From positions 49,317 through 113,316 of the IMG/VR virus record IMGVR_UViG_3300038968_000013: a stretch of 64,000 nt of DNA; one strand, written 5' to 3'. The translations under genes were made by a program, and so were the position numbers. This DNA is from a virus. Lineage: Duplodnaviria > Heunggongvirae > Uroviricota > Caudoviricetes. The notes beneath the pieces were generated by a model, which ran no database searches, had not been told where the DNA came from, and was given only the letters and a program-made list of their open reading frames with translations. This document shows, one piece after another, positions 12,721-62,777 of this stretch (its first letter is position 1; every line of letters begins with the position of its first letter).

Positions 12721-15700
12721 TAGTCAAAGTCACAAAAGTAGTAACCACACTGCTTATCCTGCGAGCATGGGAGTCCAATCTTACTATCTGCACCAGCTGA
12801 GCAAGCATAACAATCGGCTGCCGTAGAGCAGGCACGTCCCTTTAGAAAGCCACTCTGGCAGGTAGTGCTACAGGTCGGCGCAGTGTTGCAGACACCATCT
12901 GTCTTCTTCCCCAGGTTCCCAGCGAAATCCACATTTGCAGCACAGGCGCTAAGGAGATCACAGTAGGCGCTTGACCCCTCCTGAGTATAATGGACCTTAT
13001 CAGCCAAGTATGGGTGCGAGGCGTCCTTCGTAAGGATTGAAGCGCCACCCTTGTCAATGAAGTACTGGAACGAATCGACAAAATTTCCACCTGTCGCGAT
13101 TTGCTCGGCTACTAGCCAAGATCGCCAGGAAATGACATCTTGAGTTCCTTCAAACCACCCAGTCTGCTTCCCGTTTTCTACGCCCGAATTAGTCGGAGCT
13201 GAGGTCACCCAAACGTTCTCAACCACCTTACAGACTCCGCTATCGCATTGTCCACCGGAGCTACATGTTTGGCCATTCTGTGTCCCACCGCGACAGCGCA
13301 TCGTTGCCTTATCGTCAATTGATCGCTTGCCCCGAATCATACGCGCAAGGGTATTAGACGTTGCACAGATACCGCTACAGCCAACTGCTCCCGTGGCTGG
13401 GGTACACCCGCTGTAGGAGTCCGCATGAGTAGCCGCTGACGCGGTTGCGACTACGCTGGACCGTGCTGTTACGCAGACGTTAGAGCTACATGTCGTTGTA
13501 GTGATAGTGCCACAGGTACCACTTGGGCAGTCTGCTGGCTTTGTGCAGGAGAGCCCATTGTTTGCGCCGCCGGAGCACGTCGAGGGAAATGGGCCCGCAC
13601 CACCGAGGTGGCACTCTGAGCTTGAAGAGCAGGAGCAGGGCCCAGAGATGTTTGCTAACCCGAATGAGGTTGAGTTCTTAGCCATAGCGCAGAACGCCAC
13701 AAACGGGTAATCCTCTGAGTCCCAATTTGACGTCTCGGGACAGGAGCACTCTTTTCCCTGGTCGGTGCCGTACCCGCCAGCAGCTGTCCACGACTCACAG
13801 AACCCATTCTTTAAGATTCCCCCGTAGGACGAATTATTATAGGGAGCCGCCGTCGCAACCGGGTGAACCGTGTTGTTAGCGATCTGAATGAACGCTACAT
13901 CAATGGCTAGTCCACCTGTTCCAGTAATTGGAATGGTTGTGATCTTGTTTCCGGTTCCACTTTGCCCAGCCGCAAGCGTGTAGAAATCGCGATCGATGTC
14001 TCCCATGGAAGCACCGCCACGGGCCTGATCGTAGATAGCCGAAGCCTCAATCATGCTCGCCGCGCATGCAACCTTAACAGTAGATTGATCGGTTCGCGAA
14101 TCACCCATTAGGCCAACTCGCTTGTCACCCGGCAGCACATCGGAGGGGATCGGCGTGGGGCTTTGACTTACAACCTCTAGGTCCGCAAAAGTAATACGCG
14201 CCTGGTCCCCATTTTTGTGAAAAACGGTCTTATGAACCTCACCGATATAGTCATCAATCCCAGCATAGCTAATAGTGCTATTGTCGGGGTTTGTATTGAT
14301 GAGAAAAGGCACCGGGAAGTACAGCGTATCGCCAGTTCCGTCGTCTGGAACAAAGTTGTTCAGATCAAAGGATGTGCCAGTCTTAACGTTCGGCGTTCCG
14401 GCGATATCGCGGAGGCTGAGTTGCACGCCAGCCCCTAGGGTGTCGCTCCCCTCTGTGTCTTGCGCCGCAACATTAAAGACCGCAGCAAGCGGCGTAAAGC
14501 TACGGCTCGTTGGCTCCTGGAATTCAACCTCGCGGAGCCAGTCGGCATCATCGACACTAGTGTTTTCTGAAATACGAGTGGTGTTTCCATCCGGCTCGTT
14601 CGCAACGGTTCCGTTTCCGGTTAGACACTTATACTCATTGCCAGCCCCAGAGCACCCAGTCCCGACCCATCCTAGGTCCGCTCCGTTAGCGTCTACCCAC
14701 AGGGATTCAGAGACCCAGTTTGTTGATGGCGAGCTGCCTGTTTGCACAATCAGATTGTCACCAAAAACGCGCGAACGCTCTCCACTGTCATCCGGCCCAA
14801 AGAGCACACGATCCGGGGAAACAAGGCTGGTGTATGGACTTGTGAGGCCAGTTGTCGTACAGGATGCGTTAACGCATGACCCAGCAAGAGAGCAGTTGTT
14901 GCTATTGCAGTCCCCGTTTACAGTACAAGTCGCACCAGCGTTTGTGCCGCCAACGCAAGCCTTCATGAGGTTGTAAGTAGGCCACGTTGTGTTACACTCA
15001 CAGTCGGTATTCGTCGCGCAGGCTAGGTTCAGCGTTCCTCCGTTTGCCAGGCGGGAACGAATAGAGTCTCCCCCTGTGCATTTCCCCACCCGTTGAGTTC
15101 CAAGTCCGCGCTGATAAACGACGGGTAGATTGCTTGTGCATACGCCTCCGGTCCCGCAGTCTGCGTTGACGTTGCATACTGACCCGCTAGGGGCCGTTCC
15201 GGCAGTGCAGAGCTTGCCAAACTCGCCGCTATAGAACTTACAGGTTACTTCACCGGTTCCGTTTACCTGCTCAACTGCCATTACGTTTTGGCTGTTTTGC
15301 GCACGGGAAATTAGACCAAAGTAAGAGGGGGAGCACTTCGCCTCATTTGGGCGAAGCTCATCGCATTCGTTAATGCAGTGACAATCGCTTCCGTCGCAAC
15401 TAAGGGTTTCGTTTTCATCGCGAACGCACGCCGTTGGGTTGCTTCCCATTGAAAGGTAATCGGGACGGCCAGGTAGGCAATCCGCGACTGTAGTACAGGA
15501 TTGCCCGCATACGGTATCCACCATTTCAACCGACTGCTGGCATCGACCAACGACCTCCTGCGCATTCCCGTAAAGTACGGCAAAGTGCTCAAGGGGCTGA
15601 GAGCAAGCACCAGAGATAGTATTTAGACCCTGGTCTGTGCATGTCTGCCAATGATAAAGCGAACACCCCTTTTCGGTGCTTGTGGCAAGGGAGATAAGGG

Positions 15701-35242: not shown

Positions 35243-35653
35243 TTAACGTCTTCGGCCTTTAGTAGCGTCTTCGCCCGGTGGATCATACTCGACTACGAAT
35301 TCCTCCGTGGGCTTGCCGAGTTCTGCTGCGCGGTCGCGGGTCCAACCGCTTCCGTAAGATTTGGATCGGGACCAGGCGATACGAACCAGCCGCTCACATC
35401 GTTCCGCGATTTCTCGATTTCGAGACATATATCCGCGAAGTTTGCCTCGATTACCCCACTGCGCGACTTCGGGTAGAAAGATACATGTAGGGATTCCGCG
35501 TCGCGTGGCGGCTTCAGCTGCCAACGTGTCAACGCCCAGAGCCCCGCCAGATACCACCTCAGAAGGCTGATATTTGTCCAGAACCTCTTCCACAATCCGT
35601 TTCGCTTCTTCACTCTCACCTAACGCCACCGATCCTACGATTGCTAGTCGCAC
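35243..35653 (-). CDS. SLOG / DUF2493-like Rossmann protein (DprA-LOG superfamily)
   Basis: MRLAIVGSVALG...VVSGGALGVDTLAAEAA matches the pattern. Confidence 0.45.
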   Translation of the reverse strand: MRLAIVGSVALGESEEAKRIVEEVLDKYQPSEVVSGGALGVDTLAAEAATRRGIPTCIFLPEVAQWGNRGKLRGYMSRNREIAERCERLVRIAWSRSKSYGSGWTRDRAAELGKPTEEFVVEYDPPGEDATKGRRR

Positions 35654-36303: not shown

Positions 36304-36660
36304 CTAGGCGTGGGCATAGATGGTTTCTTTCCAGGCGAAAGGTAGGTCGTAGACGAAGTGGTAACGTTGCTTCAGGATCTCGACCATGCGCTTCCTGCCA
36401 TCCTCGTTGATCGAGTGGCAGATCACCGACACGCCGAACTTTGCGACGTCAGGGTTCCCGATCATCCACTGCGCGAGACCGGTGCCGTCCATTTCCGTGC
36501 CGAGGTCGTGATCGAGCATGATCACGTCGTACGGAAACGACATCAGCAGCCGTTGCGCGTGGTAGGGATTCTTCGCGTAGTCCGTCTCGTGGTGTGGATT
36601 ATTCCACGAGTACTCTTTGAACCGCTCGACCTCATCGTCCACAAACAACACCCGCATCAC
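36304..36660 (-). CDS. orphan response-regulator receiver (REC/CheY-like) domain protein
   Basis: MMRVLFVDDE...YDVIMLDHDLG shows the acidic pocket and phospho-acceptor Asp context of REC domains. No output domain is present. Confidence 0.5.
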   Translation of the reverse strand: MMRVLFVDDEVERFKEYSWNNPHHETDYAKNPYHAQRLLMSFPYDVIMLDHDLGTEMDGTGLAQWMIGNPDVAKFGVSVICHSINEDGRKRMVEILKQRYHFVYDLPFAWKETIYAHA

Positions 36661-38841: not shown

Positions 38842-38936
38842 AGGGGGCGCTTCGAGAGACATACTAGCACCCCCACCACCACCCGTCAAGAAAAAGCGTG
38901 TGCGTGGTCTCGCCCCCCGTGCTGCGCACAAGAAAA

Positions 38937-38973
38937 GGGCCGGAACCCATCAGGGAACCGGCCCTTTCTCTTT
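38937..38973. terminator. bidirectional rho-independent terminator
   Basis: GGGCCGG(38937-43)...CCGGCCC(38958-64) stem with an inner CCC/GGG pair, followed by TTTCTCTTT. It is preceded by AAAAG, so it also works for the minus strand. Confidence 0.55.
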
Positions 38974-39318
38974 ACCGCTCCACATTGCCACCCCACCGGG
39001 CTGCAGCCGGGTGTGTGGACTGGACCCTCGTCATGGTCACACCGTCCGCGTTTCAACCCCTTCGCACTCGATCCTTCTCAGCTACTCCTTAGGACTCACC
39101 TTTTAAGGGCTTTGTTGGCCCTGCCAGCTGCAGGCTGGCGATGACCATCCCGTTTGGCTCCAGACCGAACACTACTCTTGGTGCGGATTTCCCTAGGCGT
39201 CCCTAGGGCATTGCTGTTGAAGGTCCTGCCCCCGTAGGGCTGCAACTAGCTCACCGGGCGACCTAGGCGCCTAGTACCCGTGTATTTTGCCGTGCAGCTG
39301 CCTACGGGGCACAGCTCG

Positions 39319-39542
39319 TTACGCCGCAGCCTGCGCCTTGGCTTCCTTCTTCTGCTTGTCGAACTCGTCGCAGCCGTCCGTGAGCATTGCCATCACGACG
39401 TCACGCTTGGTCACGCCCTGCGGACAGGACTTCGCGATCTTGCTGATGCGATCGAACAACGCGGGCGGGATCTTCACCGCCAGCAGCTTGTCTTCGTTCT
39501 CTTTCGCTTCCTTCTTCGTGAGCAGTTCCTTGATGTTCTTCA
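39319..39542 (-). CDS. ribbon-helix-helix (Arc/CopG-like) regulator, putative
   Basis: GTG start with a GGGAGG RBS 7 nt upstream. KLLAVKIPPALFDRISKIAK...VTKRDVVMAML fits an RHH beta-alpha-alpha layout. Confidence 0.4.
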
Positions 39543-39731
39543 CCGTGGTTCCTCCCTTTCGTGAGTGAGCTGCAACAGCTGACCACCGTACTACTACAGG
39601 TATGCTCAACTGTCAAGCCCAGAAAGCATGCCCCGGTCACTTCGTTTGCGACCGTCCAGGTGCGACGTACTCTCGCATACGTGAAACCATCTGTCAAGAG
39701 CGAAGAATTCATCAGCCATTCACCAGGGCAC

Positions 39732-39760
39732 TTGACACGGTGCGCCATATCCGCTAAAAT
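39732..39760 (+). promoter_or_regulatory. sigma70-like promoter TTGACA-N17-TAAAAT
   Basis: TTGACA at 39732-37, 17-nt spacer, TAAAAT at 39755-60. It lies upstream of the small operon ending at the terminator 40548..40599. Confidence 0.55.
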
Positions 39761-39899: not shown

Positions 39900-40196
39900 G
39901 TGCGATTCAAGACCCGCCCAAAAAAGACCAAGGCACTCCGGGCGCACGCAAAGCTCCGTGCGCTCCAACGCTACGACCTCGATCTCACCGCGAAGATGCG
40001 GCGCAAGATCATCGAGGAGATTCAGCAGCAACGTAGCATCCATCTCGAAACGCAATCCAATCGCGTCTCGATACACCTCGTCGAGATAGAGCAGCGCGAT
40101 ATCCGTGTGGTATACGACCGCACGCGCAAAGAAATCATTACCGTGCTGCCCCCGGAGAACGAGCATGCTCAAGTGGCTACCTGTCACGCTCTGTGA
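39900..40196 (+). CDS. hypothetical protein
   Basis: GTG start with an AAGGAGG RBS 7 nt upstream. 98 aa. Confidence 0.4.
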   Translation: MRFKTRPKKTKALRAHAKLRALQRYDLDLTAKMRRKIIEEIQQQRSIHLETQSNRVSIHLVEIEQRDIRVVYDRTRKEIITVLPPENEHAQVATCHAL

Positions 40197-40512
40197 TCCG
40201 CCACACTCCGTGTCGAGACCGAATCAGGTCGTCGATCTCGCAAACGACTTCCACGAAACCGGCTGGTATGGTCCCGCGCTCGTTGGGTATCCGCTCAACG
40301 GACGCATCCAGCTCCTGACCGGTTCGCATCGGTACGCTGCAGCTCGTCTCAGCGAGAAGGATCAGCTCCCCGTCTACTTGGTCTCACTCGCCGAGGTCGA
40401 GGCATTCTGGGGCAACGTCGGCCAATGGAAGCGCATTCTGAACAGCGCACCGCACGTCATCGCAGGATTCCCCGGCAAGCACTTTGTCGACCGTAAAGCG
40501 ATTCAACGCTAA
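40165..40512 (+). CDS. ParB-like (sulfiredoxin-fold) domain protein
   Basis: Likely start MLKWLP. LLTGSHRYAAARL resembles the ParB GxxR box. Confidence 0.45.
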   Translation: MLKWLPVTLCDPPHSVSRPNQVVDLANDFHETGWYGPALVGYPLNGRIQLLTGSHRYAAARLSEKDQLPVYLVSLAEVEAFWGNVGQWKRILNSAPHVIAGFPGKHFVDRKAIQR

Positions 40513-40599: not shown

Positions 40600-40798
40600 G
40601 CGTATTGGTACAGAAATAACGTACTACACGATGTGCGATCGATGCTACGCGGTATTCGCGTTGTCCTTGCTGTAGCACTCGTAGCAGCGCACCGGGTACC
40701 CACACCAACGGTGTGTCAGTGTTCCACACCGACAGCATCGTTTACGGCGGTACCCATAGCGACAGTCTTCGCAGGTTGCTGGATTGTGTTTCATAGAG

Positions 40799-40872
40799 CG
40801 GAACCGAGGGGGATCGAACCCCTAACCTTTCCCGTGACAGGGGAGCGTTCTAGCCAATTGAACTACGGCTCC
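40799..40872 (-). tRNA. tRNA-Asp (GTC)
   Basis: Manual fold. Acceptor GGAGCCG/CGGTTCC, D-arm GTTC..GAAC, anticodon loop CTGTCAC and T-arm AGGGG TTCGATC CCCCT. Confidence 0.6.
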
Positions 40873-40877
40873 GTGAG

Positions 40878-40951
40878 AGTCGATACCCGGATTCGAACCG
40901 GGACCGCTAGTTTGGAAGACTAGCATGCTAACCGTTGAACACTACATCGAC
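40878..40951 (-). tRNA. tRNA-Gly (TCC), probable
   Basis: Manual fold. Acceptor GTCGATG/TATCGAC, anticodon stem CTAGT/ACTAG with loop CTTCCAA, and T-arm CCCGG TTCGAAT CCGGG. The D-stem is weak, and the 5' end overlaps the ORF 40928..41182. Confidence 0.45.
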
Positions 40952-41182
40952 ATTGATATGACCGCCATCTGCGGTGGTATAGGGGGCGCAGGTTCTGATG
41001 TGGAACCCCTCGACCGTCTTGCCACTTCCCTCATGTATTGTACGGAAGTACTTCTGAGCCGCTTGGCAAGCACTGAGGACGTCTAGCGCCACTACCCTTA
41101 CGATTCGATTAACCGTCGAAGGCATACGACTGTCCGTAACCCTTGCCTCACACTCCACCACGTATACCTTCATTGTCATCAC
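40928..41182 (-). CDS. hypothetical protein (doubtful 3' end)
   Basis: 84-aa ORF. Its last 24 nt overlap the predicted tRNA-Gly. Confidence 0.25.
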   Translation of the reverse strand: MMTMKVYVVECEARVTDSRMPSTVNRIVRVVALDVLSACQAAQKYFRTIHEGSGKTVEGFHIRTCAPYTTADGGHINVDVVFNG

Positions 41183-41397
41183 TCAATCAACCCCGCTGCC
41201 TTACACCGCGCCTCGAATTCCCGCGACAAAATGCGGCATCCCTCCAGCTGTCGCTTCACGAACTCCCTATCCTCGATCAACCTAGCCGTTGGACATGGGC
41301 TGAGATTCGCACACCCACGGCAGAACTTCGGATTGGATGGCATCGCCTGATGGTACCCCCTGAGTACCTTCAACTCCTCGTCCGTGATCAAATCCAT
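41179..41397 (-). CDS. hypothetical Cys-containing small protein
   Basis: 72-aa ORF downstream of the minus-strand promoter at 41517..41546. Confidence 0.35.
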   Translation of the reverse strand: MDLITDEELKVLRGYHQAMPSNPKFCRGCANLSPCPTARLIEDREFVKRQLEGCRILSREFEARCKAAGLIE

Positions 41398-41516
41398 CCA
41401 CCCCTCTTCTGCAGGCTAGCTCGCTTGACATGGATTTGGGCAACCATGTCGTATTCAGGATTCGCTTCTGAGCTATCTGCCTCGTCGCCCGAAGTACAAG
41501 CGAATCGGCAAAAGGC

Positions 41517-41546
41517 ATTATACGCACACCCTCAAGAAGGCGTCAA
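41517..41546 (-). promoter_or_regulatory. sigma70-like promoter TTGACG-N18-TATAAT (minus strand)
   Basis: Reverse complement of 41517..41546 reads TTGACGccttcttgagggtgtgcgTATAAT. Confidence 0.55.
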
Positions 41547-41614
41547 GGTGTTTTTTAGCAGCAATTCCGCGTATTTAGGCCCAACCTCGCGGAATCGTTG
41601 AGGAAAATCGATTT

Positions 41615-41626
41615 TTCCCTAGGGAA
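41615..41626. promoter_or_regulatory. perfect 12-bp palindrome TTCCCTAGGGAA (candidate operator, copy 1)
   Basis: Exact palindrome followed by TCAAC. An identical copy lies 105 bp away. Confidence 0.45.
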
Positions 41627-41719
41627 TCAACGTGAGGGGCGCATCCCAAGAAGACGTGAGAAAAAACTCACCCCTTTTCCCTATATGACCGGGAAAAGTT
41701 CCCTATGCCTGCGTAAGTA

Positions 41720-41731
41720 TTCCCTAGGGAA
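41720..41731. promoter_or_regulatory. perfect 12-bp palindrome TTCCCTAGGGAA (candidate operator, copy 2)
   Basis: Identical to copy 1 and also followed by TCAAC. A CTTTTCCC/GGGAAAAG inverted repeat lies between the two copies. Confidence 0.45.
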
Positions 41732-41938
41732 TCAACAGGTCTGTTTTGTGGTCCCGTGCTTTAGGGCTTTGTTCATGGCGCGTTCAGACTCTCGAATCAA
41801 GGCACCCACAGCCTTGCCTATACGTTCGCGCTGAGCGTAGGTGAACGGATCGTTCGTCTCTACGCTGGCGAGTAGGAGCACGAGGCTCTGTACGTGAGTC
41901 TCGACCTTTTCTAGGTAGTCTCTGACGGTACGTGCCAT
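41732..41938 (-). CDS. hypothetical protein
   Basis: 68-aa ORF. Confidence 0.3.
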   Translation of the reverse strand: MARTVRDYLEKVETHVQSLVLLLASVETNDPFTYAQRERIGKAVGALIRESERAMNKALKHGTTKQTC

Positions 41939-42150
41939 AGCGTTACCGGATGCTTCGGGAAGAGGACGAACGACTGCAGCGGGAACTGTAGCTCAGTATC
42001 CCAAGCGACGGGCGTACCATTGACCACCACAGCCTTATTGTTGAACCATCGGCGTAGTTCGGACCCAGAAGCCTCGCCACGTTTCGCGCCCTCACGAGTT
42101 TGAAAGTGACAGACCTCATGCAGTTCCTTTAAGAAGTCGAGCGCCCTCAT
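41911..42150 (-). CDS. hypothetical protein
   Basis: 79-aa ORF. Confidence 0.3.
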   Translation of the reverse strand: MRALDFLKELHEVCHFQTREGAKRGEASGSELRRWFNNKAVVVNGTPVAWDTELQFPLQSFVLFPKHPVTLWHVPSETT

Positions 42151-42223: not shown

Positions 42224-42502
42224 TTACTGCCAGACCGGCTTCGACATGTCGAGGATCTGTCCGAACTGATTGCGACAGTCTGCCAGACATGCCGGGGCCT
42301 TCTCGTGTTTGAACCGGATGATCTTCGCGACCCGTGCCGCCTGTGCCGCCAGCGCCACGCTGTTGGCGCGAGAGCAGAGATCCACCAGATACCGACATTC
42401 CGCTTCCTCGTTCGGAAGCGTCGCCGCCACCGTCTCTGGGTCTGCCTGTGCCGTTGCTGCCGTGAAGAGCACCATTGCTGCCGCGAGTATGATCTGCCTC
42501 AT
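42224..42502 (-). CDS. secreted 92-aa four-Cys protein (paralog A)
   Basis: Signal peptide MRQIILAAAMVLFTAATAQA. Near-identical to 45127..45405. Confidence 0.5.
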   Translation of the reverse strand: MRQIILAAAMVLFTAATAQADPETVAATLPNEEAECRYLVDLCSRANSVALAAQAARVAKIIRFKHEKAPACLADCRNQFGQILDMSKPVWQ

Positions 42503-42867: not shown

Positions 42868-43223
42868 ACCAACACCCACGCCAGGAAGAAGTAGGTCAGC
42901 GCATGAAGGTACTGATCGAACCCCAGCAAGATCCAGAACCACTCGCTATTGTTCGGCAGTAAGCCGTAATGCGCACCAACGTTCATCTTGGCCCAATCGA
43001 TGTGGTAGTGAGCTACCCCGTCGACCACCATCGACAACATAGCGAGCGTCACGCTATCGCAGCACGAGAGCACAACCCAGAACGTTGCCAGCGCATGCAG
43101 CCCCGCGTGGAGAATTCCGCCAGGGTGACCGTACGTACCCTTATTGGTGTACATGTACGGATGCGCCTGCATCGGAAAGTCCACGATGAAATGCTTCGTG
43201 AATAGCCAGAAGAGTAGCGTCAT
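42864..43223 (-). CDS. polytopic membrane protein, His-rich
   Basis: 119 aa with 3-4 hydrophobic helices. Confidence 0.4.
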   Translation of the reverse strand: MTLLFWLFTKHFIVDFPMQAHPYMYTNKGTYGHPGGILHAGLHALATFWVVLSCCDSVTLAMLSMVVDGVAHYHIDWAKMNVGAHYGLLPNNSEWFWILLGFDQYLHALTYFFLAWVLV

Positions 43224-43954
43224 TAGCCCTCCATCCCCATGTCATACCCCGGATGATCCGGAATCAGGCTACCGAGATATGCTCGGTCCTGCGTGAAAAC
43301 CGGAGGACACCCATTTGTTCCCCAACCATGCGACAGGCACTCGCGCCAATACTGCTGCACACGACCGCGACGAAAGCCTTCCGGATGATTGTTCCAGTTG
43401 TCACCCTTCGCGTGAATCATGTCGTGTAGGTCGGGCGACTTCTTCCCGTGCAGTTCCTTGTGCGAGTAGTAGTGCTGCGCCAGCATCTGCAGGGAATTGC
43501 GTTCCGCATCCTGCTGCCGCCAGATGAAGTAGTTCATGACCTCGGTGCGATCTGGGATCACGAACACGCGCGCATCGAAGACAGCCGCCATGTCGACGCC
43601 CCAGCACCGGTTGAACGCGACCGATGCCGTTGCCGCCGCGATCGAGCACATTTTCTGCAGGTTGCCGTCGAACCACGCGTCGGTCTGAATCGAGTCGAAG
43701 TCCGTCAGGAGTAGCGAGATTTCGTCCGACTGCGTGAAGGCGAATTGGGTACCCTGAATGCTTTTGCAGAGCGCCAACGCGGTGACGTCCATCGCGTTCA
43801 TGAAGCCCTTATCGTATGGCTTCTCCATGTGACGAGTCAGCGTGTGAAACGCTTTCCCGTCGACACGGATGACGGTGTAGGTGCGCCGAGGAAGGGAAAT
43901 GCGGTACCGATCTTCGTACTGCTCCTTCATGCGATCACCTAGCGAGTCAGGCAT
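43223..43954 (-). CDS. tRNA-His guanylyltransferase (Thg1-like protein)
   Basis: YEDRYRISLPRRTYTVIRVDGKAFH, EKPYDKGFMNAMDVTALAL and AFTQSDEISLLL align with the Thg1 family blocks (..VVRLDGRGFH.., ..KPNDERALNLMN.., ..YGYSDEYSFVF). Confidence 0.65.
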   Translation of the reverse strand: MPDSLGDRMKEQYEDRYRISLPRRTYTVIRVDGKAFHTLTRHMEKPYDKGFMNAMDVTALALCKSIQGTQFAFTQSDEISLLLTDFDSIQTDAWFDGNLQKMCSIAAATASVAFNRCWGVDMAAVFDARVFVIPDRTEVMNYFIWRQQDAERNSLQMLAQHYYSHKELHGKKSPDLHDMIHAKGDNWNNHPEGFRRGRVQQYWRECLSHGWGTNGCPPVFTQDRAYLGSLIPDHPGYDMGMEG

Positions 43955-45126: not shown

Positions 45127-45405
45127 TCACTTCCAGACCGGGGCGTTCATGTCGAGGATCTGGCCGAAGTTATTCCTGCAGTCGGCCAGGCACGCGGGAG
45201 CCTTCTCGTGCTTAAATCGAATAACCTTCGCGACTCGTGCCGCCTGTGCCGCGAGCGCCACCGAATTCGCGCGAGAGCACAGGTCCACCAGAAACTTGCA
45301 CTCTGCTTCCTCGTTCGGAAGTACCGCAGCTACCGTTTCGGGATCTGCATGCGCCTTCGATGCCAAACTGATGGCGAGAGCTACCGCCAGAATGATCTTT
45401 TTCAT
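45127..45405 (-). CDS. secreted 92-aa four-Cys protein (paralog B)
   Basis: Start MKKIILAVALAISLASKAHA inside the track ORF 45127..45621. The mature parts are ~90% identical to paralog A. Confidence 0.5.
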   Translation of the reverse strand: MKKIILAVALAISLASKAHADPETVAAVLPNEEAECKFLVDLCSRANSVALAAQAARVAKVIRFKHEKAPACLADCRNNFGQILDMNAPVWK

Positions 45406-46185: not shown

Positions 46186-46431
46186 TCAGATAACCCGAAG
46201 GTGTTCGCAGAAAACGTACAGATTGTGCTTCACTGACGGGTGGTCCATCTTCACCGTTGCGCATTTCCCGTCGAGAGCAATCACGGTACCGTACTTCGCG
46301 CCGCGCATCCACAGGTCGCAAGCCGGATGCAACTCGATTCGATTCCCTACAGTAACCGTCTTTCCTTGGTAGTCCGTCATAGTCACCCCTCCAGTGCCCA
46401 AATCCATATCGACCTTCTCGGATTCTGTCAA
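46186..46431 (-). CDS. hypothetical protein
   Basis: 81-aa ORF, the last minus-strand gene before the repeat region. Confidence 0.3.
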   Translation of the reverse strand: MTESEKVDMDLGTGGVTMTDYQGKTVTVGNRIELHPACDLWMRGAKYGTVIALDGKCATVKMDHPSVKHNLYVFCEHLRVI

Positions 46432-46439
46432 GCTTTTTC

Positions 46440-47980
46440 TGGATGGATTTCTGATGATTCGTTATTTGTTCAACTTGGTAGCTAACTTAGGCGACTTGCC
46501 AGAGACGCTACTTTGGGCTGGATCAATTTGAAACTGGGTGGGTTATACATATGCGGGACTTTGGGGAGGAGCTATTCAGGGAAACGTGAAATATTATAGC
46601 GCGGGGGTACACTACAGAATAAGCTAACTCATTGATCCGACTGGGAAAACCAAATTGCCCAATGTTTTCGCGGGGTTAGGGGCTGGACAAGATCCGTGCC
46701 AGCCGATTGGCACGGGACTTGCTAGCGATCGTTGGCATGCGGATTATCCCTGCTAGATCGCGGGGTTACGCGCTTCCCCAAAACATGAGGGGTATCGCGG
46801 ACTTAGGGCACCTAATGAAATCAGGTACTTAGCGCCAATGTCCGATAATGTTCTATTATGTCAACTCGCCACTCCAATTAAATCAGGTACTTAGTTAGGC
46901 TCGCCGAATATTATTAGGTCGCGGGGCCGTTACGCCTAACGCGCTTTTCGGCCAGGTGTGGCATAATCCTTGCTAGAACCGACGCGTAAGGCGTTGGCAT
47001 GATTCTTGCAGGGTCGGGGATCGCTAGGGTGGCCCCCCCCTGTATCATTTCGTTACACCCTGTCTCATTTTAACACATATCGACCCATCCCTTAGTGCGT
47101 CATTATGTCGCACCTACCTTAGGCGAAAGTCGCTTCCTTAACAATTCCGGGCACTTACCCGAGCTGGCACGATTCTCGCGTATCTGATTCTTCTTTACTT
47201 TCGCGCACTTAGGTCTGGTATGGTACTAGTGACATAGGCGAAAGTAGGGCAGATTTTGACGGCGTGCGTCATTTTTCGCTAAACTTTCGCTTTTCTGGAC
47301 CATGCGCTAATCGAGCGGAAACCGGCATAGGCAACGCGTCAAGGTCGGTTGATACATTGGCATGGTCTCAGGGTTGCGCGTGTCCTAGGGCAATTGTGGA
47401 CGTTCTAGACCTACGTTCCGAATGACATAGGTTGTTTCGGTTGCTATCTATTAAGGGCGGTTCCCGGTTCGCCCGGTTGGTTCCCGTTCCCGTGGCCTCG
47501 GCGCGGTTGGCCACGGTTCCCGGTTCGCTCATGGTTCCCGGTTGAATTGGCCACGGGTCGCGGTTGGTTTTCTGGGCTAGACGCGCGCCCGCTAGCGTCT
47601 AATCGGGCGCGAATTTTCCCGGTTGGTAGCGGATTATGCGCTAAGTACCCGGAAACATTAGAAAAGAAAAATTACGATTGACGCATTTTTTTTGTTGACA
47701 ACCGCTTGCGGTTTCCTTAGGATCGGTTCCGTTGATAGCGCAACCCCGCATGACGGCGGTTCGCGGATTCCGTAGGGTGCAAGGTTGTTCGCCGTTTCGC
47801 ACGCGGTTCAACGGAACGTGCGTTAAGGTTCGCGGCGCGCTAATCCGTAGGCTTTGACGTCGGAACGTTGCCCGGTTCCGATACCATGCCACATAGGGCG
47901 GAAACATTGGGAACGCGGTTGACCCTCACTGCTAAACCGCGCGGAATTAACCGCGCCGTTTACCTAGGAGGGTTTCACCA
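46440..47980. repeat. 1.5-kb repeat-dense non-coding region (candidate origin / partition / control region)
   Basis: No credible ORF. Direct repeats TTGGCA(C/T)G..TGCTAG x4 (46700-47030), AAATCAGGTACTTAG x2 (46815, 46882), TAGGCGAAAGT x2, and CGGTTCC/GGTTCCCGGTT x>8 (47460-47900). Palindrome CCGTGCCAGCCGATTGGCACGG (46693-46716). Also contains a C8 tract (47035-42) and T8 tracts. Confidence 0.6.
47695..47723 (+). promoter_or_regulatory. sigma70-like promoter TTGACA-N17-TAGGAT preceded by an A/T-rich UP-like tract
   Basis: TTGACA at 47695-700, 17-nt spacer, TAGGAT at 47718-23. It points into the plus-strand module. Confidence 0.45.
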
Positions 47981-49266: not shown

Positions 49267-49662
49267 ATGATTCAACGCATGTCGGAACCGGAATTGTTGG
49301 AACGGGCGGCAACCGCCGCACGGTTGGCAATGCGGGCGCGAACCGGAAACGGTTTCGCCTATTTTTTTCGCATGGCGGTTGAAACCGACCGCGAATTACA
49401 GGAACGCGCCGCAACGCGGGCGGTTGTTTCGGCAATGCTCGCAAGCGTTCCGGAAAACAACGCGCGCGCGCTGGCAACGCTCGCGGCATTCGGGCGCGCG
49501 TTCACCATGACGGCGGCAACCGAGACCAACGGCGACAACGGAAGCGACAACGGCGACGGCGGGTCAAAGGTTCGGCGACGAAAACCGCGACCGCAACCGC
49601 CATCGGGAACGCTCGCGGAATTGTTCGCGGCGAAGCTTGCGACCGCGAACGGGAAAGGTTGA
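49267..49662 (+). CDS. hypothetical protein
   Basis: 131-aa, Ala-rich ORF preceded by cassette b. Confidence 0.4.
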   Translation: MIQRMSEPELLERAATAARLAMRARTGNGFAYFFRMAVETDRELQERAATRAVVSAMLASVPENNARALATLAAFGRAFTMTAATETNGDNGSDNGDGGSKVRRRKPRPQPPSGTLAELFAAKLATANGKG

Positions 49663-55822: not shown

Positions 55823-57544
55823 TTACTTAGCCTGCATTCGATACCGCAACTCCGACTCGTGCTGACTTCTCAGCGCGGTAAGGACTTGCGCAGAGTCGAT
55901 TGGAGTGTATAGCTCCCGAACCATGGCGACTCTTTCGTCCCAGCTGCGACTACGAAACGCCTCTGGCTTTTCGTACCATTCTTCGGGCACGTCGAAATCG
56001 CTAGCATTCGCGAGTACCGTATCGATAGTGTTTTTGATTGAACGTCCGGTGAAGTGTTCACTTTGCTTCCTGAAATCCTCGCACTCCATCCCGAGGTCGA
56101 GCCACGTATCCGCCATGTCAAAAGCGGGAGCCTTGTGCTTCGTCTGCGCCCTACGTGGACGGGACAGTGGCTCGTATCTCGTTGATGGAATCTTGACGAT
56201 ACCCTGTTTGGTGGCTTTGCGCAAGAGGAGCGCGATCAGATCCGCGTAATCCTCTGGCGTCTCCGGTCCCATGACTGGAAAGCGCGCGACGAATCGCTGA
56301 CGGAGAGCCGCGTCGGTGGCGGTCGGAGCATTCGTGGCTGCAATTGTGATGTATGAGCCCGAATAGGCTGAACCGACACCAGAGAAGAAATCCATCAGCC
56401 CCTTGAGAATGTCACGATCGCCGCCACCCATGCCGGGAGAGGAACGATCGCCACCCGCGAAGAGCAGATCCACGTCGTCGAGACACATGATCGAGAGACG
56501 ACCCGGATCTCTCAGGTCGTTCAGTAGATCATTTAGAAGCGTAGCTGTTTTGCCATACCATTCCGACTTCACGTCCGATGCACCCAGCGACTTGAAGTAG
56601 GTTGGCATACCGATTTGGTCAGCGCGACGCTGTAGCAGCGTCATCGCCATCCTCATGATACTGCTTTTACCAGTGCCCGGAGGTCCGTCCAGGAGGATGC
56701 TTTCGAGAATACCCCCCATTTCACAAAATGGATTCTTCCCGAGCTGTGGGTCGTAGCACGCGAGACGATCCATTTGCCGCCTGAGCTGTAGTACCGCAGC
56801 GTCGTTGCCGACGATCTCTTCCGGTTGAACCGGGACAAAGGAAACACTTGTAGCATCTTTTGCTTTCTCTACCGTTGTTCCCGTGATGGTGAACTTCTGG
56901 TATCGGAAGGTGACTTGATCGAGAGACGATCCGAGTGTCTTATGAGCACGGGCTTTAATCCGAGCTTGTTCAGCAACCCAGCTCCAGTAGTCGCGAGAAA
57001 TACTAAGCTCGTCGCCAACGATATGGACGATAGGATTGCCGTGCTGATCTTTTGCTTGAATGGCATCGATGTACCGTGCAAGGCAAAGCCCGAGGTCGCC
57101 GTCGATAGATCCACGGATATCTAGCTTCAGGATGCTTGTGTCGAGAGTTGCGAATTGACCTTCCCGACGTCGCAGCAGGCGAGCCGCTTCCACTTGAATG
57201 AAGCTCGCTGCTACGAACGTCGAGTAGGCAGAAATGAATGCTGCGCGTTCTTGAATCTCCGGAGAGATAACGCCACCGCGTGCTTGAAGCTCTTTGGCAG
57301 CCTCGCGCTGCCCGGTGCGTTCCATCAGATGGTCCACGAACCAGTAGTAGAAGCACACGGCTTGCCGAATGAGGAAAACGAGAGCCATTTCCTCAGGCAG
57401 GACTCGCCAGGTCTCTTGTGGCGAGAGGTCTTTCAGAATGTCTTCGAGGTCGCGTTCACCGTCGATCTTGGAGAGCGCCCGTTCGGCGGTCGCAATCCAC
57501 TTATCGAGGTCTTCAGCCTTGATGGGGAGGGCTTCGCGTTCCAT
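55823..57544 (-). CDS. AAA+ ATPase (classic-clade AAA domain) with ~330-aa N-terminal domain of unknown function
   Basis: Walker A LLDGPPGTGKSS, Walker B IMCLDDVDLL and sensor/Arg-finger region IAATNAPTATDAALRQRF. Confidence 0.7.
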   Translation of the reverse strand: MEREALPIKAEDLDKWIATAERALSKIDGERDLEDILKDLSPQETWRVLPEEMALVFLIRQAVCFYYWFVDHLMERTGQREAAKELQARGGVISPEIQERAAFISAYSTFVAASFIQVEAARLLRRREGQFATLDTSILKLDIRGSIDGDLGLCLARYIDAIQAKDQHGNPIVHIVGDELSISRDYWSWVAEQARIKARAHKTLGSSLDQVTFRYQKFTITGTTVEKAKDATSVSFVPVQPEEIVGNDAAVLQLRRQMDRLACYDPQLGKNPFCEMGGILESILLDGPPGTGKSSIMRMAMTLLQRRADQIGMPTYFKSLGASDVKSEWYGKTATLLNDLLNDLRDPGRLSIMCLDDVDLLFAGGDRSSPGMGGGDRDILKGLMDFFSGVGSAYSGSYITIAATNAPTATDAALRQRFVARFPVMGPETPEDYADLIALLLRKATKQGIVKIPSTRYEPLSRPRRAQTKHKAPAFDMADTWLDLGMECEDFRKQSEHFTGRSIKNTIDTVLANASDFDVPEEWYEKPEAFRSRSWDERVAMVRELYTPIDSAQVLTALRSQHESELRYRMQAK

Positions 57545-61160: not shown

Positions 61161-62777
61161 TTACAGACCCTTCGCGAACTCCGAGATTAGCTGCGGGGTG
61201 GCAGTGTCGAAGCCCACCACGTCGAGCTGACCCGGATCGTTTGGATCTGCGATGGTGAAGTTGGTCGCAGTCATGCCGACCGTTACCATCTTGCAGTCCT
61301 TCTTGTTCATGCGCGTACGGAACTGGCGCAGAGCAGTGCTCGCGTGCGTGTTCCCGGCCCAAACCTCGTTGTCCGTGATGATCACGAAGCAATCGACGTC
61401 GAGGCTATGCTGCATCGCGTACTTCATTGCGACCGCACCGTCCGTACCACCGAAGTTGGCGTCCTGAGCAGCGCGCGCAGCATCACGGAGCGACATGCCC
61501 GGATGGATACGAAGATCCTTGAAGTGATGCGCGAATCCACCGATGAAATAGTTGCTCTCGGTGTTTGCGATCACGAGCGCCATTGCTGCTGCGCCGATGC
61601 ACGGAGTCAGACCCGGCACGCCCGCGATGCTGCCGCCCGCCATCGAGCCCGAGACGTCGACTCCCAGGAAGAAGTTCTTCCCGGTCGGCTCGACCGCCTT
61701 GAACGCGAGGTAGAACGCCTCGTCGAGGGCCTTGACCACCTTCTGCGAAGGTGTCCAGGTCTTGGACATGTCGCGGGCACCACGCCCCGCCGCGTACGTC
61801 AGGTTCGCAGCCAGGATCTGAATCGGATGCACACGGCCCTTGATGATCGCGTCCTGGTTGCCCAGAAGCTTCACGATGTCCTTCTCGGCCTGCGACAGCG
61901 GCTTCAGCAGTCCGACACGCGTCATGGTCGCCAGGTTGCGGATGACCATGGTGATCCCGCCCGTCGACAGCAGCGCCTCCCAAACCTCTGGAGCGTTCAG
62001 CAGCTGCGTCGGGATGATCTCGCGCGGCAGGTTGAAATCGGTGATCAGCTGCACCGCAGTCTTCACGTCGGCCTTGGTAGCCCCCGTGATTGCCTGCATG
62101 ACACGCGCACCCTCGATCATGTCCGGACCCTTGGTGAAGTCTTCCTTCTTCAGGGCGAACTCGAAGACAGCACGGCGCATAGCATCGTCGGTCTTCGGAT
62201 GCGTCAGACGCAGGAGGTCACGATGCGACCAACCGTCACGCTGCTGGTACTTCACGACCTGCAGTGCCAGCTTGTCGACCGGCTTGGCAAGGTACCAATC
62301 ACGCACCGCGTTCTTCAGCGCACGACCCCAGCCACGATACTGGCGGGCGAAGGCGATGAAATGGAACAGATGCGTTCCAGTACGCGCGACCTTGTGCAGA
62401 TTGGCGAGCGCGTAACGCTTCACGTCGTCGCTACCCTCGGAGGCAGCGTATGCCAGTGCCAGCAGCGCCGGATCGTTCTTCGGCGCGCGACCGTCCTGCG
62501 AAATCTGGACGATCTCGTTGACGAGACGCATGCCATCCTCCAGGAGGCACGCCTTGACGGCGTTCAGGCTCTCCTTGGTGTGCTGGCGCTGGTCAGCGTA
62601 GTACGTCCCACCCTCGGTGCCGAGGATCAGGAAGCGACGCAGATGCATCCAATGCCCGGTGGCAAAAACGTAACCACCCGCATGGTTCTTCACCTGGCGC
62701 GCGTCCAGCGGCTCCGACTCCGGAACCGGCTTCGAAATCTCGTTCAGTAGATAGCTTCCCTTGCGTCCCATCGTCAT
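61161..62777 (-). CDS. rsr: Ro60/Rsr ortholog (TROVE domain + C-terminal vWA/MIDAS domain)
   Basis: GGYVFATGHWMHLRRFLILGTEGGTYYADQRQ...ISQDGRAPKNDPALLALAYAAS aligns with the N-terminus of the Ro sixty-related protein (..RFLILGSEGGTYY..RAPKND). GVDVSGSM is a MIDAS motif. Confidence 0.85.
   Translation of the reverse strand: MTMGRKGSYLLNEISKPVPESEPLDARQVKNHAGGYVFATGHWMHLRRFLILGTEGGTYYADQRQHTKESLNAVKACLLEDGMRLVNEIVQISQDGRAPKNDPALLALAYAASEGSDDVKRYALANLHKVARTGTHLFHFIAFARQYRGWGRALKNAVRDWYLAKPVDKLALQVVKYQQRDGWSHRDLLRLTHPKTDDAMRRAVFEFALKKEDFTKGPDMIEGARVMQAITGATKADVKTAVQLITDFNLPREIIPTQLLNAPEVWEALLSTGGITMVIRNLATMTRVGLLKPLSQAEKDIVKLLGNQDAIIKGRVHPIQILAANLTYAAGRGARDMSKTWTPSQKVVKALDEAFYLAFKAVEPTGKNFFLGVDVSGSMAGGSIAGVPGLTPCIGAAAMALVIANTESNYFIGGFAHHFKDLRIHPGMSLRDAARAAQDANFGGTDGAVAMKYAMQHSLDVDCFVIITDNEVWAGNTHASTALRQFRTRMNKKDCKMVTVGMTATNFTIADPNDPGQLDVVGFDTATPQLISEFAKGL

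Follow-up and report, generated by a model that had tools for sequence, protein, structure and literature searches.

In the looping operators of lac, gal and ara, the paired sites lie 92 bp (O1-O3), 113 bp (OE-OI) and 210 bp (O2-I1) apart, and one operator or more lies on or next to the promoter, which is thereby trapped in the loop. The rrnB P1 and tyrT promoters are preceded by Fis sites at about −71, −102 and −143, as well as by an UP element. Ribbon-helix-helix (RHH) proteins bind operators built of heptads, as in the case of omega of pSM19035, or combined centromere-operators, as in the case of ParR and ParG. Iteron origins and P1 parS, with its heptamer boxes, likewise carry arrays of short boxes, and the NtrC-type systems define the usual geometry of enhancer sites. 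Here we analyze a 117-bp stretch (41615-41731) that lies upstream of a small tRNA operon in an uncultured tailed phage and compare it with these systems. The DNA studied, which we call the window, comprises 64,000 nucleotides (positions 49,317 to 113,316 of IMG/VR virus record IMGVR_UViG_3300038968_000013). A preliminary description of the locus had noted a minus-strand promoter with two identical palindromes upstream of it and had proposed that a dimeric regulator binds them cooperatively and loops the DNA between them. With moderate confidence, we favor the view that the stretch is a conserved cis-regulatory platform, that is, a phased array of protein-binding sites coupled to the promoter.

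A phased array of heptads and palindromes

The perfect 12-bp palindrome TTCCCTAGGGAA occurs exactly at 41615-41626 (the proximal copy, P4) and at 41720-41731 (the distal copy, P1), 105 bp apart, just as had been stated. Both copies belong to an intergenic region of 334 bp (41398-41731), which is flanked by two genes on the minus strand, a 68-amino-acid (68-aa) ORFan (41732..41938) and a 72-aa open reading frame (ORF; 41179..41397). P1 adjoins the stop codon of the former (TGA, 41734-41732 on the minus strand), whose 3' end provides the left half of the palindrome. In simulations with a first-order Markov model of the window, a duplicated, non-overlapping, perfect 12-bp palindrome within 200 bp appeared in one of 1000 runs. 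The search for further copies, which had been suggested as a check, found no exact TTCCCTAGGGAA elsewhere in the window, but did find related sites, solely at 39.2 kb. The 8-bp palindromic core CCCTAGGG occurs three times in the window (39201, 41617, 41722).

The unit of repetition is the half-site TAGGGAA, of which six of the 11 copies in the window fall within the 117-bp stretch. Four copies, all in the direction of transcription (minus strand), are located at 0, 21, 43 and 105 bp, which corresponds to 0, 2.0, 4.1 and 10.0 helical turns and places them on the same face of the DNA. Heptads 1 and 4 are extended to the full palindrome, heptad 1 being the right half of P1 on the minus strand and heptad 4 coinciding with P4, whereas the inner two, H2 (41699..41705, minus strand, 21 bp past heptad 1) and H3 (41677..41683, minus strand, 22 bp past H2), remain half-sites; P4 follows 62 bp past H3. 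The gaps between the units measure 14, 15 and 55 bp, and 68 bp or more separate the nearest unit from the −35 hexamer downstream. The core common to all four sites is limited to 7 nt, with differing flanks.

Between the palindromes, where an inverted repeat had been noticed, there are two: CTTTTCCC/GGGAAAAG at 41674-41698 and GTGAG-T6-CTCAC at 41656-41671, a small hairpin or bend element. The latter is part of the 50 bp from H3 to P4 (41627..41676, minus strand), which hardly vary, contain CTCACGT twice (ACGTGAG on the plus strand, 41630-41636 and 41654-41660) and follow the almost invariant pattern GGGGTGAG-T5/6-CTCACGTCTT...CTCACGT. This block may be a bend element or the site of a second factor. 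A third perfect 12-bp palindrome, AAAATCGATTTT (41604-41615), adjoins P4; the corresponding sequences of the other lineages are not palindromic.

We compared four independent, diverged lineages of one uncultured phage group (alignment A2): that of the window, L029/L030, L035-L038 and L039. The contigs of the latter three are short and were found by way of homologs of two neighboring proteins, of 72 aa and 79 aa. All 28 heptad columns are invariant, whereas 166 of the 322 other columns between P1 and the start codon vary (Fisher p = 5e-9). H2 is the same in all four lineages and H3 lies within the invariant block TATAGGGAAAAGGGGTGAG. Between the window and L035, sequence identity is 89% over the module (P1 to P4), 40% over the following 68 bp and 11% over the promoter spacer. 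From start to start, the heptads are 21, 22 and 62 bp apart in three lineages. L039 differs in the first interval, which is 32 bp owing to an insertion of 11 nt ahead of H2 that keeps the helical phase: P1 and P4 are 105 bp apart in the three lineages and 116 bp, or 11.05 turns, in L039. The observation that the palindromes are spaced by whole turns thus extends to both forms. P4 has no mismatch in any of the four lineages; P1 is likewise perfect in the window and L035-38 and matches at 10 of 12 positions in L029/30 (CTCCCTAGGGAA). The left half of P1, (T/C)TCCC, is provided from three upstream contexts, namely the end of the S4-like gene and two versions of the end of the 68/71-aa gene (described below), which suggests selection for the palindrome.

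In contrast, TCAAC, which had been reported after each palindrome, is present in the window and turns both copies into an exact 17-nt direct repeat with a spacing of 105 bp, but it is specific to this lineage. Next to P4, the window has GTTGA, L029/30 have GTCGA, and both L035 and L039 have GTCTT, and the distal flanks differ as well; since the other lineages carry different sequences at this place, we consider TCAAC to lie outside the conserved element. Among viral contigs, the exact 17-mer of palindrome and TCAAC matched only L001-3, three copies of one unrelated phage that shares a single protein with the window, endonuclease VII. We take this match to be a coincidence, because the TCAAC part is not conserved in the relatives of the window. 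In these contigs (L001 5549-5590, L002 2022-2063, L003 1684-1725) two copies of AGGGAATCAACARCTTAC, each in agreement with the IHF consensus WATCAANNNNTTR, are 31 bp apart; the pair is located in a leader of ~190 nt behind a TTGACA promoter, with the endonuclease VII gene divergent.

Wider searches did not yield further examples of the module. The internal 17-mer TAGGGAAAAGGGGTGAG had 33 matches in genome and viral collections, none of them with the extended block; all are chance matches, and none points to a prophage or to the host. In a metagenome scan for TAGGGAA-N14-16-TAGGGAA-N53-57-TAGGGAA, there was no module among the matches listed, which were dominated by 7-mer/21-mer tandem repeats. 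No relatives of the 68-aa and 72-aa proteins were found in viral contigs, and the relatives obtained there through Thg1 were phages of 43-58% identity that lack the module. Distant homologs of the 79-aa protein (L031-34, L193-196) occur in other contexts and have no heptads. A literature search for the 12-mer TTCCCTAGGGAA found no paper.

Conservation of the block could alternatively reflect a function as RNA. It might be a 3' untranslated region or a small RNA of the upstream operon, in which pairing of P1 with P4 closes a domain of ~90 nt or in which UAGGGAA repeats bind an RNA-binding protein, for instance the S4-like 79-aa protein. The minus strand indeed folds with P1 paired to P4 (minimum free energy −67.1 kcal/mol, z = −3.1), the entire block is conserved, including the small hairpin, the gene directly upstream is S4-like in two lineages (10 of 20 family members match Pfam S4), and in more distant phages ~240 nt without genes, ending in a terminator, come after the homologous gene. 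However, the P1:P4 fold is explained by the palindromes themselves, as a self-complementary sequence pairs with its own copy by construction. The alignment offers no covariation; on the contrary, in L029/30 and L039 the left half of P1 has changed in such a way that the P1:P4 helix is broken without compensation. An 11-nt insertion that keeps a 10.5-bp phase is meaningful for DNA, not for RNA. Further, no convincing terminator follows the block, which had no Rfam match at E ≤ 1, the module persists in L030 in spite of an internal deletion in the S4-like gene, and the distant S4-like homologs come without a heptad cluster. A function as RNA therefore appears very unlikely to us. The palindromic symmetry, the 10.5-bp phase that survived an indel and the fixed distance to the promoter, described below, instead point to recognition of double-stranded DNA.

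A second alternative starts from the gene upstream of P1. The 68-aa gene is absent from L029/30 and L039 and has a 71-aa homolog in L035-38; the right end of this indel falls exactly at the center of P1, and CCTAG is present at both of its ends. The palindromes could therefore be sites of recombination or mobility, such as cassette junctions, targets of homing-type endonucleases or the ends of a miniature transposable element, with any regulation being incidental. The locus is a hot spot of gene insertion (DUF559, a 155-158-aa ORF, Endonuclease_7), five extra bases are common to both palindromes in the window lineage, as gene conversion might leave them, and P1 and P4 form 13-nt terminal inverted repeats. 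Yet the element is single-copy and occupies the same position in all lineages, P4 is at no indel boundary, and a cassette junction would need neither the conserved interior nor the phased inner heptads. Neither a target-site duplication (the flanks are ATTTT and TCAAC) nor a recombinase gene was recognized, and the scans with the internal 17-mer did not bring up the element elsewhere. We consider recombination sites a remote prospect.

Probable coupling to the promoter of a tRNA operon

The promoter on the minus strand (41517..41546) consists of a −35 hexamer TTGACG (41546-41541), an 18-nt spacer and a −10 hexamer TATAAT (41522-41517), and matches the sigma-70 consensus TTGACA/TATAAT at 11 of 12 positions. 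Two such 11/12 matches occur in the window, compared to ~0.33 expected from shuffles. TTGAC, TATAA and the spacer length are kept in the four lineages; as the hexamers and the spacer length are maintained while the spacer sequence drifts, we regard the promoter, as first proposed from its sequence, as very likely real.

It reads towards a transcription unit (40798..41397, minus strand) that comprises the 72-aa ORF (41179..41397), an 84-aa ORF (40928..41182), tRNA-Gly(TCC) at 40877-40951 and tRNA-Asp(GTC) at 40798-40872, all on the minus strand. No part of this cargo other than the two tRNAs is common to all lineages; they always lie downstream of the promoter, and in L039 the leader leads almost directly into them. 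As called, the 84-aa ORF extends 24 nt into the 5' part of tRNA-Gly, and either its end or its reality is doubtful.

Between promoter and start codon lies a conserved leader of ~113 nt (41398..41510, minus strand), which forms two hairpins, followed by a GGGGTGG ribosome-binding site. Hairpin 1 (GATTCGCTT/AAGCGAATC, 41459-41467 and 41498-41506) has a variable loop and one double change from G-C to A-U, and hairpin 2 pairs GACATGG with CCATGTC (41427-41433 and 41444-41450). Both are conserved in the four lineages, in which the leader block CTGAATACGACATGGTTGCCCAAATCCATGTCAAGC is nearly invariant.

The array and the promoter are separated by a linker of 68 bp (41547..41614, minus strand), whose sequence is replaced elsewhere at a length of 67-68 bp. 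Measured from the last heptad to the −35 hexamer, the distance is 75, 75, 74 and 75 bp in the four lineages. Such a constant distance across replaced DNA indicates that the array is tied to the promoter and that there is a constraint on the length between the array and RNA polymerase. In the window, the linker contains the inverted repeat ATTCCGCG-N16-CGCGGAAT (41564-41571 and 41588-41595), and each of the other lineages has a small inverted repeat of its own there. An A6 tract is located just upstream of the −35 hexamer, and three of the four lineages have an A-tract at this place.

We envisage that the platform is bound by a symmetric protein, which could be a dimer or a higher oligomer and be encoded by the phage or its host. 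This protein would occupy the two palindromes as strong sites and the inner heptads H2 and H3 as auxiliary half-sites. The bound copies would contact each other, so that the DNA between them is looped or wrapped, possibly helped in bending by the T-tract block between heptads 3 and 4. The complex would thereby be held at 74-75 bp from the −35 hexamer, on the upstream side of a strong sigma-70-type promoter, which would transcribe the structured leader, one or two small ORFs, tRNA-Gly and tRNA-Asp, and whose output the complex would set from upstream, not by covering it. That a protein binds here, that its copies cooperate by looping or wrapping and that this promoter is their target are all inferred from the arrangement of the DNA.

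Relative to the predicted start, the centers of P4 and P1 are at about −110.5 and −215.5, and with both palindromes so far upstream, simple repression by occlusion is unlikely. Sites at ~−110 and −215 match the usual geometry of enhancers, which would also allow the array to be an upstream activating sequence for a sigma-54 enhancer-binding protein, and look-alikes of −24/−12 elements are clustered in the window at 46686-47180. However, the promoter conserved at this locus is of the −35/−10 type, and 41398-41614 contains no TGGCAC-N5-TTGC element on the minus strand when up to two mismatches are allowed. No Sigma54_activat domain was found either; the 573-aa ATPase encoded at 55823..57544 matches the classical AAA family (PF00004). 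We rate this possibility as extremely improbable. Two further readings of the heptad were rejected by eye: as a promoter of a phage RNA polymerase (T7-like TATAGGGA) and as an ECF-sigma element. Upstream, the four sites have nothing in common, and there is no −10 element at a fixed downstream distance.

A replication origin with iterons, or a partition or centromere site for an initiator or a ParB/ParR-like protein, would offer a different explanation for the array, with the strong promoter providing transcriptional activation. As in P1 parS and iteron origins, short direct and inverted boxes extend over ~100 bp around a bendable center; direct repeats ~21-22 bp apart occupy one helical face, flanked by the palindromes, and T and A tracts occur inside and beside the array. 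There is also a small ParB_N-like ORF 1.1 kb away (40165..40512; 115-135 aa; Pfam E = 0.0036, below the family cut-off). Against this, the shared core has just 7 nt, unlike iterons of 17-22 bp, and there is no AT-rich unwinding region, GC content being 47-52% across 41520-41760 compared to 55% in the genome. No DnaA box (TTATCCACA, up to one mismatch) occurs within 4 kb, the ParB_N-like protein has no recognizable DNA-binding domain, and neither an initiator nor a ParA gene was recognized nearby, where the neighbors are ORFans, the S4-like protein and the tRNAs, although an initiator may have escaped recognition among them. The strictly kept distance to the −35 hexamer, which sets the array apart from these systems, points to a link with RNA polymerase, and a better place for an origin is the strand switch with the GC-skew minimum at ~46-48 kb, where 1.6 kb are free of genes. 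In our judgment, an origin or centromere is unlikely.

Several observations weigh against the promoter-coupled binding array that we favor. For a sigma-70 promoter, the palindromes are unusually far upstream, and the transcription start to which these distances refer (~41509-41511) is a prediction. No heptad near or downstream of the promoter could close a repression loop: TAGGGAA is absent between P4 and the start codon in all four lineages, and likewise between −100 and the start codon. In L039, P1 is reduced to the TAGGGAA half-site. The heptads do not fully account for the conservation of the block between H3 and P4, which may encode something else. The lineages number four, two of which are close to the window. 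Finally, scans of ~50 ORFs of the window against Pfam or PHROGs yielded no convincing DNA-binding domain.

Compared with the lac, gal and ara operators, the locus shares two symmetric sites that are whole turns apart (105 bp, 10.0 turns), at a spacing that is kept and tolerates the insertion of a full turn, and a bendable segment between them. It differs in that both sites are upstream, with no operator overlapping or bracketing the promoter, and in having two extra half-sites inside the would-be loop. The earlier idea of a dimeric regulator with looping consequently holds in part: symmetric, conserved and phased sites support it, but the unit is an array of four heptads, and a loop that occludes the promoter does not fit. 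With Fis arrays, the locus has in common a strong sigma-70 promoter for tRNA genes, several far-upstream sites on one face and, as in promoters with an UP element, an A-tract just upstream of the −35 hexamer in most lineages. Yet neither TAGGGAA nor the palindrome resembles the degenerate 15-bp Fis consensus, and the sites begin further upstream (−110). RHH operators provide a 7-bp unit in direct (four copies) and inverted orientation (in P1 and P4), and the 8-bp core CCCTAGGG has the size read by a single RHH dimer (compare the MetJ box); the known RHH arrays, however, are contiguous and overlap the promoter, whereas the units here are 14-55 bp apart and far upstream.

As the locus departs from every one of the specific families in one defining feature or more, we file the element under its general kind only, a cis-regulatory protein-binding array. 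By analogy, it looks like an ordinary but well preserved member of the known phased, cooperative factor-binding arrays upstream of promoters. No current concept is challenged by it, as phased upstream factor sites and cooperative binding are already well known. If our interpretation is correct, it represents a clean and evolutionarily validated cis-regulatory module, for which the motif (TAGGGAA / TTCCCTAGGGAA), the phasing and the target promoter are defined, and which could be used as bait, in DNA pull-downs or DNA affinity purification sequencing (DAP-seq), for a new regulator of the phage or its host. It would also show how phages time the supply of tRNAs.

Candidate binders and the related sites at 39.2 kb

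The CCTAGG sites that had been mentioned near 39.2 kb are indeed present, at 39192, 39202 and 39262, and the related sites together span 39189-39275. They include GTCCCTAGGGCA (39199-39210) and TTCCCTA (39189-39195), and on the minus strand they contain a smaller cluster, CCCTAGGGAC-GCCTAGGGAA (39189..39210), with two heptad-type sites 10 bp apart. This is the spacing expected for a dimer of dimers and a further resemblance to RHH operators. The pair lies in a gene-free stretch, 110-130 bp downstream of the stop codon of a small ORF (39319..39543), which is located 2 kb from the array and which the preliminary description had named as an RHH candidate.

For this candidate, family matches exist and are weak: the PHROG 'Arc-like repressor' (E = 0.0057) and, in PDB, the RHH protein ORF56 (2k9i, E = 0.23), with no match in Pfam. 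By eye, its sequence follows a strand-helix-G-x-T-helix pattern. A single-sequence AlphaFold model is mediocre (predicted local distance difference test, pLDDT, 71) and all-helical, and the region upstream of the gene contains no heptad. We therefore list it as a weakly supported binder. The 68-aa, 72-aa and 84-aa products are unlikely to bind the array, judging from the lineages in which they are absent or truncated while the module persists.

A more elaborate version of the platform would combine these elements. The array would be the site of a wrapped nucleoprotein assembly that acts on the sigma-70 promoter in an enhancer-like manner; the assembly might consist of a small RHH-type protein of the phage that also binds the 39.2-kb site, 2.4 kb away, and long-range contacts would couple the expression of the tRNAs to an RNA-repair set (Ro60, Thg1, cREC and the S4-like protein); or the array would double as an origin or centromere. 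We consider this version speculative and rather improbable.

The 39.2-kb pair belongs to a stretch of ~350 bp without genes (38925-39318), between a convergent 118-aa gene and the RHH candidate. It contains a strong bidirectional terminator hairpin (38933-38970, AAAAGGGCCGGAACC...GGAACCGGCCCTTTCT) and a further perfect 12-bp palindrome, CTAGGCGCCTAG, at 39263-39274, and its minus strand may give rise to a small RNA.

On the other side of the RHH candidate, and divergent from it, is the second 11/12 match to the sigma-70 consensus, TTGACA-17-TAAAAT on the plus strand (39732-39760). It serves a 98-aa ORF and the ParB_N-like ORF, which are convergent to the tRNA operon, and an ACGTA-N8-TACGT repeat is located near it, at ~39664-39682.

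Gene gain and loss at the locus and gene content of the phage

Near-identical phages differ at this locus by the gain and loss of genes. In L037, a gene for a DUF559 endonuclease-like protein (1032-1415) is inserted right after the start codon of the 72-aa ORF, together with a duplicated GTGGATGGATTTGA. In L035 (4225-4692) and L028 (679-1155), tRNA-Gly and tRNA-Asp are separated by an inserted ORF, which encodes 155-158 aa. L025, but not L024, has an Endonuclease_7 gene (13796-14179).

In the window, the S4-like 79-aa protein is encoded at 41911-42150 (minus strand). In the more distant phage L193 (1380-1625; also in L194 and L195), a strong terminator, AAAAGCCCCGG...CCGGGGCTTTTT, closes the ~240 nt without genes that come after the S4-like gene. 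This stretch, which has no match in Rfam, is a candidate for a small RNA next to a gene with an RNA-binding domain.

The window is part of a tailed phage with genes for terminase, portal and major head protein and with many small ORFans. By its terminase, it is at best 33% identical to the closest cultured phage. The same phage, with a 100% identical intergenic region, occurs in several metagenome assemblies; it is at least 113 kb long. It carries a set of genes for RNA repair or quality control, all on the minus strand, which comprises, besides the S4-like gene, a Ro60 homolog (61161-62777; TROVE and vWA_Ro60, E = 1e-42 to 1e-49), the tRNA-His guanylyltransferase Thg1 (43223-43954), a cREC 'cyclic-phosphate processing' receiver (36304-36660) and a YAcAr/DprA-like SLOG protein (35243-35653). 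A search of Rfam found no Y-RNA.

Two paralogous 92-aa proteins (42224-42502 and 45127-45405, both minus strand) have N-termini that resemble signal peptides and share a cysteine-rich core, ADPETVAA.LPNEEAEC..LVDLCSRANSVALAAQAARVAK.IRFKHEKAPACLADCRN.FGQILDM.

A gene-free stretch of 1.6 kb, at 46381-47978, lies at the switch between leftward and rightward operons. The sigma-54-type −24/−12 look-alikes are located on its plus strand: TGGCACGGGACTTGCT at 46708 (0 mismatches), TGGCATAATCCTTGCT at 46959 (1), TGGCATGATTCTTGCA at 46995 (1) and TGGCACGATTCTCGCG at 47165 (2), with an inverted copy at 46686-46701. Such elements are not enriched across the window (4 with up to one mismatch, compared to 2.2 expected); three of them fall within 300 bp. 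The same stretch carries four copies of ACGGTTCCCGGTTC, at 47457-47878.

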